From Escherichia phage vB_EcoM_ECO78: DNA of 64,000 bases. The stretch is taken from the sequence record PP526941.1. One strand, written 5' to 3'. The position numbers were made by a program, and so were the translations under genes. The notes under the pieces are model-generated. The model searched no databases, had not been told where the DNA came from, and saw nothing but the letters and a program-made list of their open reading frames with translations. Shown in pieces: positions 557-49,737 of this stretch (positions are counted from its first letter, which is position 1; each line of letters begins with the position of its first letter).

Positions 557-1150
557 TTATTTCAGAGAATTAATGTATTCCTGAACATCGGCAGAGGTGG
601 TTTCAACCCCAGAAATATTACCGTTAAAGGTTTCAACTCGAGCGAGAGTATCTTCAATATCAACCTTAGTCAGTGCTGCAATTTCAACTACATCATCAGC
701 AGTACTAATTCCAAGGGCATTTGCTGCACGAGTTTCACGGATATATTCCAATTTAACTGCAAGTTCTTGACGAGCATCATCTAACTCAACTACTTTCTTG
801 GCGATTTCAATTCGCATTTCAGCATAACCATCAGCTTTAGTAGTCAACTGCTCAGCTGTTCGACGATATAGTAAACCGAGTTTAGCATGCATTGTTACAT
901 CTTGACCTTCAAAAAGAAGCTTGCGAATTTCACGCTCTTTTGATTCGGCCTGCTTATTCTTTTCGACAATAAGTTCACGAATACGTTTTTCTTCATTAAT
1001 AGATTTAACAGAAGCAGTTTTTAGGTCTTTAATTTTATCAAGTAGTTTTGCTGCTGCAGCAGTATACTGTTCTTCAACAGATAGATTTTTAGCCATAGCA
1101 GAACCAAGTTTAGTGCGAATAAACTCAACAATTTTCTTCAGTGTGTTCAT
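557..1150 (-). CDS. hypothetical protein, 197 aa, predicted coiled-coil
   Basis: ATG with AGGAA RBS; heptad-like charged sequence; own sigma70-like promoter upstream. Confidence 0.6.
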
Positions 1151-1192
1151 AGTATTTCCTTAGGTTGATTAAGATTTAAAATCCGTGGAAGA

Positions 1193-1221
1193 ATTATATC
1201 ATGTTATCTGAGTGATGTAAA
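1193..1221 (-). promoter_or_regulatory. early promoter (sigma70-like: -35 GTTTACA, 17-bp spacer, -10 TATAAT)
   Basis: Minus-strand reading gaataaGTTTACA-17nt-TATAAT about 40 nt upstream of the ATG at 1150. Confidence 0.5.
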
Positions 1222-1222
1222 C

Positions 1223-1558
1223 TTATTCTTCGTCTAGCTCATCGATAAAACCGTCGATGGCCTCGATAACTGCATCATTGATAGCCAATAAAGTAAAATC
1301 ATCGTCAGTGCCTTTAGAAAATTCTAAAGCATTGATATATGCTTGATTAGCAAGTTCCCAAGCCTTTTTAAAATAAGGAGCTTCATCATCAGGGCCAACG
1401 AAACGTACACCTTCAAAGATACGGTTAGCATAATCCAATACCCACTGTACAGGCATATTTTGAGAACGTTCGTTAAACTCTTTAAAGTCCTTAGATTCAA
1501 AAAGCTCTTCGGGATAATTATTTCTATTACAAAAAGCTTTACTAAAGTTACGTTTCAT
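1223..1558 (-). CDS. hypothetical early protein, 111 aa
   Basis: ATG with GAGGAG RBS; acidic C-terminus. Confidence 0.6.
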   Translation of the reverse strand: MKRNFSKAFCNRNNYPEELFESKDFKEFNERSQNMPVQWVLDYANRIFEGVRFVGPDDEAPYFKKAWELANQAYINALEFSKGTDDDFTLLAINDAVIEAIDGFIDELDEE

Positions 1559-44572: not shown

Positions 44573-45190
44573 ATGTACCACTTTGTATATGAAACAACAA
44601 ATCTAATAAATGGTAAAAAGTATATAGGAAAGCACTCTACTGATGACTTGAATGATGGTTACCTTGGTTCCGGTAAGGCAATTCAGCAGGCTATAAAGAA
44701 ATATGGTGAAAACAATTTCTCTAGAACAATACTAAAAGAGTTTAAAACTTCCGAAGAAGCGTACATGTATGAAGAAGAAATTATAACTCCTGAACTAATA
44801 AAAAGCAAAAATTATTATAATATGAAACCTGGTGGAATTGGTGGAATTGTTATGACTACAGATGTTATAGCAAAGATGAAAGAATCTTCCGCTAAAAGAT
44901 TTGAAAACTCACCGGGCACGGTATTAGGTAAAACTTGTTACACTAATGGAACTAAAAATATTTTTATTAAACCTGGAGAACTTGTTCCAGAAGGATTTGT
45001 AAAAGGGATGGTTCATCCTAATAGAAAGTCCAGAAAAGGATGTAAAGTCAAACCGACTACCACAGGAACTTTTTGGGTCAATAATGGCGCAATAAATAAA
45101 TTAATACAACCAGACGGTATTATTCCCGACGGATTTATTAAAGGTCGTCTCATGAAAAGAGATTCTAAAGGCAAATTTAGTAAGGCATAA
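44573..45190 (+). CDS. segE: GIY-YIG homing endonuclease (SegE-like), 205 aa
   Basis: N-terminal GIY-YIG motif (HFVYETTNLINGKKYIGKH) with downstream conserved R, E, N; same position and length as T4 segE. Confidence 0.8.
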   Translation: MYHFVYETTNLINGKKYIGKHSTDDLNDGYLGSGKAIQQAIKKYGENNFSRTILKEFKTSEEAYMYEEEIITPELIKSKNYYNMKPGGIGGIVMTTDVIAKMKESSAKRFENSPGTVLGKTCYTNGTKNIFIKPGELVPEGFVKGMVHPNRKSRKGCKVKPTTTGTFWVNNGAINKLIQPDGIIPDGFIKGRLMKRDSKGKFSKA

Positions 45191-45192
45191 TT

Positions 45193-46701
45193 ATGGATAT
45201 TAAAGTACATTTTCACGACTTCAGTCATGTACGCATCGATTGTGAAGAGAGCACGTTCCACGAATTAAGAGATTTCTTTTCGTTTGAGGCCGATGGATAT
45301 AGATTTAATCCTCGCTTCAGATATGGCAACTGGGATGGACGAATCCGTCTTTTAGATTATAATCGACTTCTTCCATTCGGCTTAGTCGGGCAAATTAAAA
45401 AGTTCTGCGATAACTTTGGCTATAAAGCCTGGATTGACCCACAAATTAACGAAAAAGAAGAATTATCAAGAAAAGATTTTGATGAATGGCTTTCTAAATT
45501 AGAAATCTATTCAGGAAATAAAAGAATTGAACCGCACTGGTATCAAAAAGATGCAGTGTTCGAAGGATTAGTTAATCGTCGTAGAATTCTTAATCTTCCA
45601 ACATCCGCTGGTAAATCTTTAATTCAAGCTTTGCTTGCGCGATATTATTTGGAAAATTATGAAGGTAAAATTCTTATCATTGTTCCAACAACTGCTCTGA
45701 CAACTCAGATGGCTGATGACTTTGTTGACTATCGTTTATTCAGTCATGCAATGATAAAGAAAATCGGCGGTGGAGCATCAAAAGATGATAAATATAAAAA
45801 TGATGCACCAGTCGTTGTTGGTACATGGCAAACTGTAGTAAAACAACCGAAAGAATGGTTCTCACAGTTTGGAATGATGATGAATGATGAATGCCATCTT
45901 GCTACAGGAAAAAGTATTTCATCTATCATATCAGGTTTAAATAACTGTATGTTTAAATTTGGTTTGTCTGGTTCATTACGTGATGGCAAAGCTAATATCA
46001 TGCAGTATGTTGGAATGTTTGGTGAAATATTTAAGCCAGTAACGACTTCTAAATTAATGGAAGATGGACAAGTAACTGAGCTAAAAATTAATAGTATTTT
46101 TCTTCGCTATCCCGATGAGTTCACTACTAAATTAAAGGGAAAAACTTACCAAGAAGAAATAAAAATTATCACTGGACTCAGTAAAAGAAATAAATGGATC
46201 GCTAAATTAGCTATTAAGCTTGCACAAAAAGATGAAAACGCTTTTGTCATGTTTAAACACGTATCACACGGTAAAGCTATTTTCGATTTAATTAAAAATG
46301 AATACGATAAAGTTTATTACGTATCAGGGGAAGTTGATACCGAAACCCGCAATATAATGAAAACCTTAGCTGAAAACGGTAAAGGAATAATTATAGTAGC
46401 TAGTTATGGTGTATTTTCTACCGGTATTTCAGTTAAAAATCTGCATCACGTTGTTTTAGCACACGGTGTTAAATCTAAAATTATTGTATTGCAAACAATC
46501 GGTCGTGTATTACGTAAGCATGGTTCCAAAACAATCGCAACAGTCTGGGACCTCATCGATGATTGTGGTGTTAAGCCAAAATCTGCTAATACGAAAAAGA
46601 AATACGTTCATTTGAACTATCTTTTAAAACACGGCATTGATCGTATTCAGCGCTACGCAGATGAAAAATTTAATTACGTAATGAAAACAGTTAATTTATA
46701 A
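45193..46701 (+). CDS. uvsW: UvsW, RNA-DNA / DNA-DNA helicase (SF2), 502 aa
   Basis: Walker A LPTSAGKS, DECH box MMNDECH; N-terminus MDIKVHFHDFSHVRIDCEE... Confidence 0.93.
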   Translation: MDIKVHFHDFSHVRIDCEESTFHELRDFFSFEADGYRFNPRFRYGNWDGRIRLLDYNRLLPFGLVGQIKKFCDNFGYKAWIDPQINEKEELSRKDFDEWLSKLEIYSGNKRIEPHWYQKDAVFEGLVNRRRILNLPTSAGKSLIQALLARYYLENYEGKILIIVPTTALTTQMADDFVDYRLFSHAMIKKIGGGASKDDKYKNDAPVVVGTWQTVVKQPKEWFSQFGMMMNDECHLATGKSISSIISGLNNCMFKFGLSGSLRDGKANIMQYVGMFGEIFKPVTTSKLMEDGQVTELKINSIFLRYPDEFTTKLKGKTYQEEIKIITGLSKRNKWIAKLAIKLAQKDENAFVMFKHVSHGKAIFDLIKNEYDKVYYVSGEVDTETRNIMKTLAENGKGIIIVASYGVFSTGISVKNLHHVVLAHGVKSKIIVLQTIGRVLRKHGSKTIATVWDLIDDCGVKPKSANTKKKYVHLNYLLKHGIDRIQRYADEKFNYVMKTVNL

Positions 46702-46713
46702 GGGCTTCGGCCC
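46702..46713 (+). other. UUCG-tetraloop hairpin (GGGC-TTCG-GCCC) immediately after the uvsW stop
   Basis: Perfect 4-bp stem with UUCG loop followed by TTT. Confidence 0.45.
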
Positions 46714-46726
46714 TTTGGAGAAAAAG

Positions 46727-46957
46727 ATGTTACTAGAATTTAAACAATTTCTTTATGAAGCTTCTATTGATGAATTTATGGGTAAAATTGCCTCTTGTCA
46801 AACAATAGAAGGTCTAGAAGAACTTGAAGCTTATTATAAGAAAAGAGTTAAAGAAACTGAATTAAAAGATACTGATGACATCTCCGTGAGAGATGCTTTG
46901 GCAGGAAAAAGAGCTGAATTAGAAGATTCAGACGATGAAGTAGAAGAAAGCTTTTAA
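46727..46957 (+). CDS. uvsW.1: UvsW.1, small acidic protein, 76 aa
   Basis: MLLEFKQFLYEASIDEF...; GGAG RBS before the ATG at 46727 (track start is an upstream TTG). Confidence 0.8.
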   Translation: MLLEFKQFLYEASIDEFMGKIASCQTIEGLEELEAYYKKRVKETELKDTDDISVRDALAGKRAELEDSDDEVEESF

Positions 46958-47012
46958 ATTAAAAAAGGCCCAACCAAAAAGGAAGGGCCAAAACTATAGA
47001 CTAAAGGTCACA

Positions 47013-47180
47013 CTATAGCAAAAGTTGTGTTTCATTTAATTGTTCTTCCGAACTTTCTGAAACTGGTAGTTCTTTAATGTAATTATAACAAGGCCCAGGA
47101 TGTACAGGACCTTTGTCTGTTTCAACAACCAATGCAGAATCGATTGGAGTTTTACAGACAACGCAAATCTTATCTGACAT
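47013..47180 (-). CDS. small Cys-containing protein, 55 aa, not in the ORF track
   Basis: ATG at 47178-47180 with GGAGA RBS; MSDKICVVCKTPIDSALVVETDKGPVHPGPCYNY...; minus-strand TATAAATA 26 nt upstream. Confidence 0.5.
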   Translation of the reverse strand: MSDKICVVCKTPIDSALVVETDKGPVHPGPCYNYIKELPVSESSEEQLNETQLLL

Positions 47181-47205
47181 GATTGTCTCCTCTAAATTAT
47201 ATATC

Positions 47206-47213
47206 TATTTATA
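47206..47213 (-). promoter_or_regulatory. late promoter TATAAATA (minus strand)
   Basis: Exact TATAAATA on the minus strand upstream of the 55-aa ORF. Confidence 0.5.
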
Positions 47214-47433
47214 TAACTCTCATATGCATATCAATGCCCATATCTTTAGAATAAAAATATTCATCAAGATATCCGGCAAATTTTCCTTTAACATAAAGTA
47301 CATCTTCACCGCATGGGTGGTCGGCCAGGATACGAATATCCTGACGCTTGAGATTATACTTTTTCATTAAGAATTGAATTTCCGTTTCGAATTCTTCTTC
47401 ATAATTAAAAGCATCATCAATGCTATATTTCAT
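47209..47433 (-). CDS. hypothetical protein, 74 aa (uvsY.-2-like position)
   Basis: ATG overlapping the uvsY stop (TAATG); contains HPCGEDVLY. Confidence 0.6.
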   Translation of the reverse strand: MKYSIDDAFNYEEEFETEIQFLMKKYNLKRQDIRILADHPCGEDVLYVKGKFAGYLDEYFYSKDMGIDMHMRVI

Positions 47434-47846
47434 TATTTTCCAGCCTCAAATGCTCGCATGTCTTGAATATGCTTAATAGCAAATCCGCGTGATTTAATAG
47501 CATCAAGAGCTCCGCTACAGAAATCCAATAAAATTCCCCAATATTGTAATGAAGTATCAACTTTTAAAACATCCTTATCAGCTGATAGAACTGTCTTCAT
47601 TTCTGATTTCTCATAACGGTCCATACTAAATTCATCACCATCTCCTCGTCCCGAGTAGTAGTCTAATCTAGCTTTAAGAGCAACTTTTTTCTGTGCGTCA
47701 ATTCTAAGCATTTCCTTTTTAATACTTGAATGCTTATTAAGCCATTTACTATATAACATCACATTATTAGCTGCTTCATACTGTAATTTAGTCGAATCTA
47801 TAAATACATCTTTCTTCAATTCTTCTTGAAGATCTTCTAATCTCAT
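47433..47846 (-). CDS. uvsY: UvsY, recombination mediator protein, 137 aa
   Basis: MRLEDLQEELKKDVFIDSTKLQYEAANNVMLYSKWL...; length as in T4. Confidence 0.93.
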   Translation of the reverse strand: MRLEDLQEELKKDVFIDSTKLQYEAANNVMLYSKWLNKHSSIKKEMLRIDAQKKVALKARLDYYSGRGDGDEFSMDRYEKSEMKTVLSADKDVLKVDTSLQYWGILLDFCSGALDAIKSRGFAIKHIQDMRAFEAGK

Positions 47847-47886
47847 ATTATTCTCTATTCAATTGTTATTGGATGGACTTAGATTC

Positions 47887-47914
47887 ATTATACCACGTTT
47901 TAACGTGAAGCATT
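47887..47914 (-). promoter_or_regulatory. middle (MotA-dependent) promoter for uvsY: MotA box aaTGCTTCA plus -10 TATAAT
   Basis: Minus strand ataaTGCTTCAcgttaaaacgtggTATAAT; MotA-box-like element about 13 nt upstream of the -10. Confidence 0.45.
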
Positions 47915-48311
47915 ATACCCTATTACTGGAAGCCAGTTGCAGTTTTATCTGCTCAATATCATCGGGGTTATCGATGACTGAAAAGCGTATTTCTACTATC
48001 AGAGTATAATCATCATAAACGGGTATCACATTAACTGATAATTTATCAATACGTGGCTCATAGTTTCTTACTGCGCTTTCGATGTTACGCTCAACCGTAT
48101 CAGCAGTAAGAGGAGTCATATTTTCAAAAAGCTGGTCTGATAAATCACATCCAAATTCAGGGTCAAACGGTCTTGAACCTTTTCTTGTTGTAATAATTCC
48201 CAAAAGACTGTTTTTAATTGACCTTAATCCAAGCGATCTGGAAACGTCTTTGTTCCAATCCATTTTCATTTCCGGGTCAATGTCAGAATAAAGCTTATTA
48301 ATATTTGACAT
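47913..48311 (-). CDS. 25: gp25, baseplate wedge (gpW/lysozyme-like), 132 aa
   Basis: Length and synteny as in T4. Confidence 0.9.
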   Translation of the reverse strand: MSNINKLYSDIDPEMKMDWNKDVSRSLGLRSIKNSLLGIITTRKGSRPFDPEFGCDLSDQLFENMTPLTADTVERNIESAVRNYEPRIDKLSVNVIPVYDDYTLIVEIRFSVIDNPDDIEQIKLQLASSNRV

Positions 48312-48937
48312 TATAGTAACTCAAAGAACTCTTTGAGGCCTCTTATTACGTGAGCATGGGTTTTTCCACACTCTGGACACTTAATTGGAACAGCCAAATA
48401 AACAGTAGGCTTTAAAAGCATATCTTTTATAGCTACAATATCTGACTCTGTGATGATAGAATATAAATCTTCCAGTTCTTTTTCATTTAAGTCTTCAACT
48501 GGAATGCTTTCCCCGTTAGCATGAATCGTTTCTATGCATGATACTATCATGTGGGCTATATTTTTATCATCAAAAATTTTAGGGTATCGGAATTTAATTT
48601 TAATGTCACCCAGTGTATACCAGAGGTCTTCTGGTGCATCTATTTGTGTATGTAATAGATTTATATGGGTTGGTATTTCAGTTCCACAGGTGCACTTCCA
48701 GGAGTTTTCGTGATTAACTTCGCCGAGAGAATGTGCCCATAAATGAATCAACAATAGTTCTGATTCTTGGCGGTTTAAATCTTTTGCATTTGTGCAGTCT
48801 TTGATTAGCTTTTTAACAATTACTTCTACAGAACCATTATTTTTGGCAGTAATAAGTTCTAGATATTCTTTAAGCGTGAATGCGCGACAATTGATTATTT
48901 TAGAACCAACTCTCACATCAAATTTGTATTCATACAT
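48311..48937 (-). CDS. 26: gp26, baseplate hub subunit, 208 aa
   Basis: Length and synteny as in T4; Cys-containing motifs CTCG and CPECG. Confidence 0.9.
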
Positions 48938-48958: not shown

Positions 48959-48966
48959 TATTTATA
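48959..48966 (-). promoter_or_regulatory. late promoter TATAAATA (minus strand) for genes 26-25
   Basis: Exact TATAAATA on the minus strand; overlaps the plus-strand late promoter by 4 bp. Confidence 0.55.
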
Positions 48967-48970
48967 AATA
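48963..48970 (+). promoter_or_regulatory. late promoter TATAAATA for gene 51
   Basis: Exact TATAAATA 17 nt upstream of the ATG at 48988. Confidence 0.55.
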
Positions 48971-48987: not shown

Positions 48988-49737
48988 ATGGCAAACATTA
49001 TTCGTTGTAAATTACCAGATGGTGTTCATCGTTTTAAACCATTTACGGTAGAAGATTATCGAGATTTTTTGTTAGTTCGAAACGATATAGAACATCGGTC
49101 ACCACAAGAACAAAAAGAAATAATTACTGATTTAATTGATGATTATTTTGGAGACTATCCGAAGACTTGGCAACCATTTATATTTTTGCAGGTATTTGTA
49201 GGGTCAATAGGTAAAACTAAAGTACCGGTTACATTTGTATGTCCAAAATGTAAAAAAGAAAAGACAGTTCCATTTGAAATATACCAAAAAGAATTAAAGG
49301 AACCTGTTTTTGATGTAGCTAATGTTAAAATTAAATTAAAGTTTCCTTCTGAGTTTTATGAAAATAAAGCAAAGATGATTACTGAAAATATTCATTCTGT
49401 TCAAGTAGATGAAATATGGTATGATTGGAAGGAAATTAGTGAATCAAGCCAAATAGAACTTGTTGATGCTATCGAGATAGAAACATTAGAAAAAATTCTC
49501 GATGCAATGAATCCTATTAATTTAACTCTACATATGTCATGCTGCAATAAGTACATTAAAAAATACACTGATATAGTAGACGTGTTTAAGCTATTAGTTA
49601 ACCCAGATGAGATATTTACTTTTTATCAAATTAATCACACACTCGTAAAAAGTAATTATAGCTTAAATTCAATAATGAAAATGATTCCTGCTGAGCGCGG
49701 ATTCGTATTAAAACTGATTGAGAAGGATAAACAATAA
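48988..49737 (+). CDS. 51: gp51, baseplate hub assembly catalyst, 249 aa
   Basis: Length and synteny as in T4; Cys pairs CPKCKK and CCNKY. Confidence 0.9.

Follow-up and report, generated by a model that had tools for sequence, protein, structure and literature searches.

The stretch of DNA considered here, hereafter the window, comprises 64,000 nucleotides (nt) of Escherichia phage vB_EcoM_ECO78 (PP526941.1), and the element under study within it is the small minus-strand gene uvsY.-2, which encodes a protein of the DUF2685 family. It is flanked by uvsW.1 (46715..46957 (+)), with which it is convergent, and by uvsY.-1 (47209..47433 (-)), which lies upstream of it, and the open reading frames (ORFs) around it are of the T4 type, namely segE, uvsW (502 amino acids (aa)), uvsW.1, uvsY.-1, uvsY and genes 25, 26 and 51. 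With 97.6% identity to T4 across 5.5 kb, the window is that of a close T4 relative and not of T4 itself. An earlier reading made from the sequence alone (hereafter the sequence-only reading) had placed a 55-aa ORF in the gap between uvsW.1 and the uvsY-proximal gene; the ORF is there, the neighbour is uvsY.-1, and the translation given by both the ORF listing and the raw sequence, MSDKICVVCKTPIDSALVVETDKGPVHPGPCYNYIKELPVSESSEEQLNETQLLL, is the one that had been quoted. The same reading called the ORF unannotated because it fell below the 60-aa cutoff of the display then used, and this description is wrong. The product has 100% aa identity with T4 UvsY.-2 (NP_049797.1, UniProt Q00778), the T4 reference NC_000866 carries the gene as a coding sequence (CDS) at 114496..114663 (-), and uvsY.-2 is annotated in nearly every related genome that we inspected. 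Residues 3–55 align to profile positions 1–55 of the 55 in PF10886 (DUF2685) with 119 bits against a cutoff of 25, the same profile is matched by all 60 diverse relatives of the protein, and a PHROG match assigns it to phrog_1043, while no NCBIfam match was found for UvsY.-2. We regard the identity of the gene and its reality as practically certain. The gene, its family, conservation, translation and fitness effect are all already on record, and the finding, a rediscovery of an annotated gene, leaves the T4 gene catalogue as it was.

The sequence-only reading took the ORF for a genuine coding gene and named conservation of the frame and its cysteines in relatives, as well as proteomics of infected cells, as ways of checking this, and both come out in its favor. 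A tblastn search finds uvsY.-2 in 1,251 phage records, 1,243 of them with at least 80% coverage, from phages whose hosts include Escherichia, Klebsiella, Acinetobacter, Vibrio and Aeromonas. An exhaustive profile search of 1.8 billion cluster representatives returned only 65 matches at E ≤ 1e-3, about 60 of which are true family members, and these approximately 60 clusters (at 50% identity) are nearly all free-standing proteins of 51–67 aa. The ratio of nonsynonymous to synonymous substitution rates (dN/dS) against five other genera is 0.04–0.32, with synonymous sites near saturation, and the frame is under purifying selection. Gene order is kept as well: in 11 genomes from different genera uvsY.-2 lies downstream of uvsY or uvsY.-1 and is convergent with uvsW.1 or uvsW. 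At the protein level, UvsY.-2 (Q00778) has been detected by mass spectrometry of infected cells in the time-resolved T4 proteome, where uvsY.-2 belongs to the “middle” RNA class and the “late” protein class and the RNA of uvsY and uvsY.-1 is “early” (PMC9697503). A length of just 55 codons is what might be expected of a chance open frame in AT-rich intergenic DNA that codes for nothing, but this explanation, to which we assign next to no probability, is refuted by the Pfam score, the number of copies, a dN/dS well below 1, the mass spectrometry and a complemented knock-down phenotype.

This phenotype comes from the CRISPRi-ART screen, in which knock-down of uvsY.-2 was scored as “Semi-Fit”, with plating efficiency about 2-fold lower and plaques about half the size, and the defect was rescued in trans (PMC11879866). 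A modest fitness role for uvsY.-2 is thus part of the published record. The fact that knock-downs of uvsY, uvsY.-1 and uvsW were all “Not Fit” in the same screen (PMC11879866) disfavors a simple role in recombination for UvsY.-2.

The family also contains longer entries. Database entries of 67–101 aa were considered as fusions of DUF2685 to other domains and rejected as start-codon or chimeric-contig artefacts. A separate long form is a real ORF: in the Proteus phages Pm5461, PM2 and phiP4-3 and in Shigella phage vB_SdyM_006, DUF2685 makes up the C-terminal 54 aa of an ORF of 123–126 aa that starts at the uvsY stop codon (1001..1381, locus L018, in Pm5461). Its 72-aa N-terminus matches phrog_26998 only, has no Pfam family and shows no similarity to UvsY.-1. 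Within the coding sequence of the Pm5461 long ORF, an internal ATG (1217) retains an AAGGA Shine-Dalgarno sequence and is preceded by a TATAAATA box some 95 nt upstream; these Proteus and Shigella phages could therefore make a long and a nested short product, similar to those of T4 genes 26 and 26'.

Table 1. Positions of uvsY.-2 and its associated features in the window (nt, numbered along the window).
Feature	Position	Strand	Remarks
uvsY.-2 CDS	47013..47180	(-)	55 codons + TAG, ATG start; DUF2685 family member
Predicted C2HC zinc-knuckle module, codons 1–35	47076..47180	(-)	From ligand conservation and AlphaFold2
Predicted ligand codons	C6 47165..47163; C9 47156..47154; H27 47102..47100; C31 47090..47088	(-)	
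Acidic low-confidence linker with invariant E42 and C-terminal tip L-x-E-T-Q-L-L-L, codons 36–55	47016..47075	(-)	
Shine-Dalgarno sequence GAGGAG	47187..47192	(-)	6 nt before ATG; contains GGAGA
Predicted late transcription start	47200	(-)	20-nt leader; from the -13..-6 consensus position
Late promoter box TATAAATA (T4 type, positions -13..-6)	47206..47213	(-)	Exact octamer match
Intrinsic terminator	46961..46989	(-)	GGCCC..GGGCC hairpin 46989..46967 + U6 46966..46961; 55-nt gap between uvsY.-2 and uvsW.1

The signals for expression of the gene are collected in Table 1. The sequence-only reading had proposed a late promoter belonging to the ORF itself, with a minus-strand box 26 nt upstream of the start; the box TATAAATA is indeed present, and the number of nucleotides between it and the ATG is 25 rather than 26. 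We applied the criterion for T4 late (gp55-dependent) promoters, in which TATAAATA occupies positions −13..−6 and no −35 element is required (PMC1524935), and T4 relatives often have A or T at −13 (PMC1524935, Nolan et al.). The box overlaps the TAA stop codon of uvsY.-1. There are 22 copies of TATAAATA in the window against 9.1 ± 2.7 expected, with none of 100 shuffles reaching 22, and approximately 14 of these copies precede an ATG ORF of 50 aa or more by 14–36 nt; the 25-nt spacing at uvsY.-2 is typical of the other boxes in the window. In relatives the sequence [T/A]ATAAATA is found at −31 to −37 from the uvsY.-2 ATG in Tequatrovirus, Mosigvirus, Karamvirus, Dhakavirus and Jiaodavirus, and within these five genera three different genes lie upstream (uvsY.-1, uvsY or an endonuclease gene), each with its TAA stop embedded in the box. 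In the near-identical genome fPS-90 this box carries the annotation “predicted late promoter”. The uvsY.-2 late promoter is probably in use, and the later RNA class of uvsY.-2 than of uvsY (PMC9697503) fits an extra late promoter. A sigma-70-type promoter returned by the promoter scan (ATGAGA-16-TATAAT, 47223..47196) was judged not functional since its −10 element ends 3 nt before the Shine-Dalgarno sequence, so that transcription would start inside or past the latter.

The GGAGA ribosome-binding site of the sequence-only reading was rightly identified and falls within the Shine-Dalgarno sequence GAGGAG. The 10 nt directly before the ATG, GGAGACAATC (47181..47190 (-)), are identical across five Tevenvirinae genera, represented by T4, Jiaodavirus KP182, Karamvirus EnA02, Dhakavirus IME281 and Mosugukvirus PM2. 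Synonymous sites in the adjacent coding sequence are near saturation. This identity exceeds what a Shine-Dalgarno sequence alone would need, and the leader may be a site of translational control. No structured RNA was found by Rfam at E ≤ 1 in 46400..47900. Downstream of the gene, the terminator region folds with −16.1 kcal/mol over a 66-nt stretch, and the plus-strand reading of the hairpin has no U-run behind it. A hairpin and T-run with a different stem sequence occupy the same place in KP182, PHB13, Aes012, EnA02, IME281, PM2, AlbertHofmann and Pm5461, which matches the conserved terminator reported downstream of uvsW.1 (PMC1524935). A simple terminator scan missed the hairpin, since it takes the outer GGCCC/GGGCC pairing alone for the stem and treats the intervening 13 nt as loop.

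Late expression together with map position would also be consistent with a role in morphogenesis, in which UvsY.-2 would be, for example, a chaperone of baseplate-hub assembly or a minor component of the virion, expressed along with genes 25, 26 and 51. The late promoter, the late-class protein, a location downstream of genes 26 and 25, which share its strand, and the paired cysteines that gp26 and gp51 also possess all speak for such a role, but uvsY lies between uvsY.-2 and gene 25 in all genera, and the tail motif described below resembles the docking tails of DNA-transaction proteins and is unlike structural proteins. A protein of this kind is not known from T4 baseplate structures. This role is very unlikely in our assessment.

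The N-terminal half of the protein carries the Cys/His arrangement, C-x2-C…H-x3-C, that led the sequence-only reading to suggest a small zinc-binding module, and the comparison of relatives bears the suggestion out at the level of a prediction. In an alignment of 60 diverse family members, which underlies all residue counts given here, C6, C9 and C31 are invariant (60/60), as is E42 in the tail, and H27 is His in 57 of 60, Cys in 2 and Tyr in 1 (the Tyr belonging to a truncated 46-aa entry). A zinc site would be expected to allow just this, a His exchanged only for a different metal ligand. Of the 58 motif-bearing members, 57 keep the spacing C-x2-C-x15..20-H-x3-C and the remaining one has x12, and K10, G24 and G29 are at least 90% conserved, K10 being nearly invariant beside the knuckle. 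AlphaFold2 (AF2) gave a predicted local distance difference test (pLDDT) score of 72 from 21 sequences and of 80 from 60 sequences, with 83–90 over residues 1–40 in the second case. The two models agree in topology, comprising an N-terminal knuckle, a hairpin (19–21/24–26) and a helix (30–37), with bridges at 4–5 and 12–13, H27 at the end of the hairpin and C31 in the opening turn of the helix. Residue conservation and modeling thus give good support to the prediction of a single C2HC treble-clef-like zinc knuckle, and we consider it likely that the protein holds one zinc ion.

The resemblance of this module to known fingers is looser, and UvsY.-2 is filed in no characterized finger family. 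The top Foldseek matches in the PDB, all sub-significant, are almost uniformly treble-clef structures, comprising LIM half-domains (1.7 Å over 29 columns), L24e/Rlp24, RING, PHD and GATA, and the search of BFVD returned uncharacterized family members only. Pfam zf-Vps39_C is touched below threshold by 11 of the 60 members (best E = 6.3e-4), and the family profile gives a borderline match to the VPS39 finger 6ze9 in the PDB, with E = 1.3e-3 in what is a small database, in which the signature CxxCK..I...G-V-x-H..C is aligned; phmmer against solved structures gave only low-complexity noise in lysostaphin repeats. The VPS39 finger is itself predicted to coordinate a single zinc with four ligands and to make protein-protein contacts, its solved structure being non-native (PMC7384125).

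A zinc knuckle of this kind could also bind nucleic acid, for example as a translational or transcriptional regulator. The prediction of a single treble-clef-like finger would fit this, as many small zinc fingers act in such a way, and so would the near-invariant K10 and the strikingly conserved GGAGACAATC leader, which could be an autoregulatory site. The charge of the family speaks against it, with a median of −1 for the zinc module, −5 for the tail and −6 for the whole protein and almost no basic surface; UvsY.-2, at a net charge of about −5, is too acidic to be a likely nucleic-acid binder. In addition, the nearest fold classes, LIM and the VPS39 type, are protein-protein modules (PMC7384125). 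We give nucleic-acid binding a very low probability.

The tail of the protein (residues 36–55) consists of an acidic linker, for which AF2 confidence falls to pLDDT 58 over residues 41–50, and a tip (71 over residues 51–55) whose last 8 residues show position-specific conservation as L-x-E-[T/V]-[Q/E]-L-L-[L/M]. E42 (codon 47055..47057) is invariant in 60/60, in the context [S/T]-E-[S/N/D], within the stretch of lowest AlphaFold confidence, and the linker probably holds a second contact motif, P-V-S-E-S. The general form of the tail recalls the SCBM (sliding-clamp-binding motif), defined as a brief C-terminal stretch of hydrophobic and acidic character on a flexible linker (PMC2988020), and UvsY.-2 has this architecture. 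In T4 the C-termini concerned are ...KTNTLDFLL for gp33, ...ASLDFLFG for gp43 and ...SLDFLYEAND for gp55, to be compared with ...LNETQLLL for UvsY.-2, and the clamp-binding tail, which attaches to gp45 at a hydrophobic patch, can be exchanged between gp55, gp33 and gp43 (PMC2988020, PMC7892883). The gp33 tails of PM2 and IME08 (both NTLDFLL), of an Acinetobacter phage (STLDFLYG) and of an Aeromonas phage (NTLDFLM) stand in the same relation to the UvsY.-2 tails. The bacterial beta-clamp motif (QL[SD]LF / QLxLxL) was set aside, the Gln being Glu in half of the family and the C-terminus being such that it would truncate the motif.

From these features we propose the following mechanism, of which the overall form has about an even chance of being correct. 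The gene would be transcribed by read-through from the upstream uvsY unit and, in T4-like Tevenvirinae, additionally from its own gp55-dependent late promoter TATAAATA, with the transcript ended by the hairpin and U-run terminator that is shared with the convergent uvsW.1, and UvsY.-2 may be made throughout infection and in greater amount late. Residues 1–35 would form a single treble-clef-type zinc knuckle through C6, C9, H27 and C31, and residues 36–55 would form an acidic flexible linker with the conserved acidic and hydrophobic tip L-x-E-T-Q/E-L-L-L. The whole would act as a zinc-stabilized docking or competitor mini-protein, the tip of which plugs a hydrophobic pocket on a hub protein of phage DNA transactions, with the P-V-S-E-S segment probably docking as well, and at late times of infection this docking would adjust replication, recombination or late transcription. 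Docking through the tail, taken by itself, we rate at slightly under an even chance. The best partner that sequence comparison offers is gp45, whose gene lies outside the window; as a partner it is a lead of low probability. The more specific proposal that UvsY.-2 is a new gp45 ligand, whose E-T-Q-L-L-L tip occupies the patch used by gp33, gp55 and DNA polymerase and which thereby arbitrates use of the clamp, is unlikely.

A number of observations weigh against the mechanism in one or another of its parts. The box TATAAATA was not found upstream of uvsY.-2 in PM2, Acj9, Aes012, phi-Grn1 or PHB13, nor in the genera examined beyond Tevenvirinae, and the late promoter is therefore a feature of a lineage and not of the family, with uvsY.-2 in those five phages relying on upstream read-through. 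Two Foldseek searches against the PDB gave nothing significant (best E 0.44 and 0.37), there was no significant fold or sequence match to any characterized zinc-finger family, and Pfam matches other than DUF2685 were all sub-threshold. The invariance of E42 within a supposedly flexible linker means that the tail is more than a tether. At the tip, E-T-Q-L-L-L departs from the SCBM consensus [S/T]-L-D-F-L-[L/F/Y], and UvsY.-2 is therefore not classed as an SCBM member, and we say only at the level of hypothesis that it works like one; relative to gp33, gp43 and gp55 the first Leu anchor is mostly Thr, Val or Ile in UvsY.-2 and the Phe has become Leu. It speaks for the mechanism that a pattern spanning all four tails matches UvsY.-2 alone among 78 likely genes of the window, but this similarity pattern was designed after the UvsY.-2 sequence had been seen. 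Finally, the gp33 tail of KVP40-like phages has diverged (SASDLGQWV) whereas the UvsY.-2 tail of the related phi-Grn1 is still ETQLLNG, which argues against co-evolution of the two on a shared pocket.

The tip has a second possible model in gp32. Here the tail of UvsY.-2 would mimic the acidic tip of gp32 (or of host SSB) and compete for docking on recombination and replication proteins, for example UvsY, UvsX or gp59. Both the gp32 tail and that of UvsY.-2 (...SESSEEQLNETQLLL) run from Ser-rich through acidic to Leu-rich at the free C-terminus, L-[DN]-[DAS]-L-L is retained at the gp32 tip across six lineages, and gp32 recruits gp59, UvsX, UvsY and Dda (PMC11551737). The spacing differs, with LxxLL in gp32 as compared to LxxxxLL in UvsY.-2, so that the similarity is mostly compositional, and the sole structurally defined contact of the gp32 tail, with Dda, is made by residues 250–264 and not by the tip (PMC11551737). 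The position of uvsY.-2 downstream of uvsY and convergent on uvsW in every genus examined could be taken as a further link to these proteins, but gene order is conserved across T4-like core genomes in general, which makes synteny weak evidence for a functional connection, and knock-downs of uvsY and uvsW do not share the milder phenotype of uvsY.-2. Mimicry of gp32 therefore appears quite improbable, and gp45 heads our list of candidate partners of UvsY.-2, followed by the sites at which the gp32 tail binds.

The small size of UvsY.-2, the strong acidity of the family and the lack of an enzymatic domain would suit yet another role, that of a host-directed inhibitor of a host DNA-binding protein or defense system. 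The fitness effect is partial, as might be expected in this case, and the CRISPRi-ART authors list uvsY.-2 among the unknown genes that possibly reveal defense inhibition (PMC11879866 supplement). The gene occupies a fixed core-genome slot in phages of Escherichia, Klebsiella, Proteus, Acinetobacter, Aeromonas and Vibrio, which is a point against this role, as anti-defense genes are usually patchy in occurrence and found in variable regions. The protein class is also late and not early. We consider a host-directed role rather improbable, and retain the zinc-stabilized docking protein as the preferred explanation.

Several observations on the neighboring genes were made in the course of this analysis. 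Over the uvsW region (45193..46957 (+)) the window, like all relatives, has uvsW (502 aa) and a separate uvsW.1 (approximately 76–80 aa), a split that was reported after resequencing (PMC1524935), and the T4 RefSeq NC_000866 still annotates uvsW as a single 587-aa CDS (112677..114440). The labeling of UvsW.1 as “DNA helicase” in PHROGs and in many genomes is a legacy error that follows from this single CDS. Immediately upstream of uvsW, as in T4, is segE (44573..45190 (+)), a GIY-YIG homing endonuclease gene (205 aa) that is absent at this position in fPS-90, which is otherwise approximately 99.6% identical to the window in the neighboring kilobase. UvsY.-1 (74 aa) belongs to no Pfam family and is restricted to some genera, which among those examined are Tequatrovirus and Mosigvirus, with a weak, sub-threshold NCBIfam match to the N-terminal region of the MvaT/MvaU nucleoid proteins (E = 0.004); the slot between uvsY and uvsY.-2 is taken elsewhere by an endonuclease gene (Dhakavirus) or a GatB/YqeY-like gene (KVP40-like phages). 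Two overlapping back-to-back TATAAATA boxes at 48959..48970 serve the divergent genes 26 and 51. The products of these two genes, which are baseplate-hub assembly proteins, have paired cysteines, C82-x-C84 and C187-x2-C190 in gp26 (48311..48937 (-)) and C85-x2-C88 and C185-C186 in gp51 (48988..49737 (+)), which may be metal sites.

The value of the analysis lies in the anatomy that it proposes for the product of a gene that is conserved in the T4 family, has no known function and is one of a small number of such genes to show a complemented fitness phenotype (PMC11879866). A literature search on DUF2685 and uvsY.-2 found no paper on the domain content of UvsY.-2 or on an arrangement of zinc knuckle and docking tail, and what may be novel is the tail, with its acidic linker and conserved E-T-Q/E-L-L-L C-terminus. 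The C2HC zinc knuckle, the acidic linker with its invariant Glu and the conserved docking-type tip constitute a testable anatomy, and if the gp45 proposal were true, a zinc-knuckle mini-protein would arbitrate the clamp between replication, late transcription and recombination-dependent replication.

It is useful to set UvsY.-2 against the known systems that it resembles. The predicted knuckle shares with treble-clef fingers (the first half of LIM, C-x2-C-x16-23-H-x2-C, and the VPS39 finger) the C2HC ligand set, with C-x2-C followed after approximately 17 residues by H-x2/3-C, as well as, in the AF2 models, the origin of the first two ligands in a knuckle and of the last two where a hairpin ends and a helix makes its first turn, and its CxxCK..I...G-V-x-H signature aligns with that of VPS39. 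It differs in having H-x3-C where they have H-x2-C, and the scores are not significant and give no evidence of common descent. The A-domain tip of gp32, which is conserved across lineages, is similar in its Ser-rich stretch, its acidic residues and its Leu-Leu near the free C-terminus, and differs in reading LDDLL where UvsY.-2 has L-x-E-T-Q-L-L; moreover, UvsY.-2 has no OB fold. With gp33, gp43 and gp55 the likeness is one of construction, in that a folded body is followed by a low-complexity linker and a short acidic and hydrophobic segment at or near the free C-terminus, although the linker of UvsY.-2 differs in bearing an invariant Glu. When N-T-L-D-F-L-L of gp33 is placed over N-E-T-Q-L-L-L of UvsY.-2, the last three residues are hydrophobic-L-hydrophobic in both and position −4 is acidic or polar. 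The closest comparison is with T4 UvsY.-2 itself, from which the window differs by 2 synonymous changes in the CDS and by a spacer of 28 nt as opposed to 26 nt, and with which it shares an identical aa sequence and length, the slot between uvsY.-1 and uvsW.1, the promoter box and the terminator.

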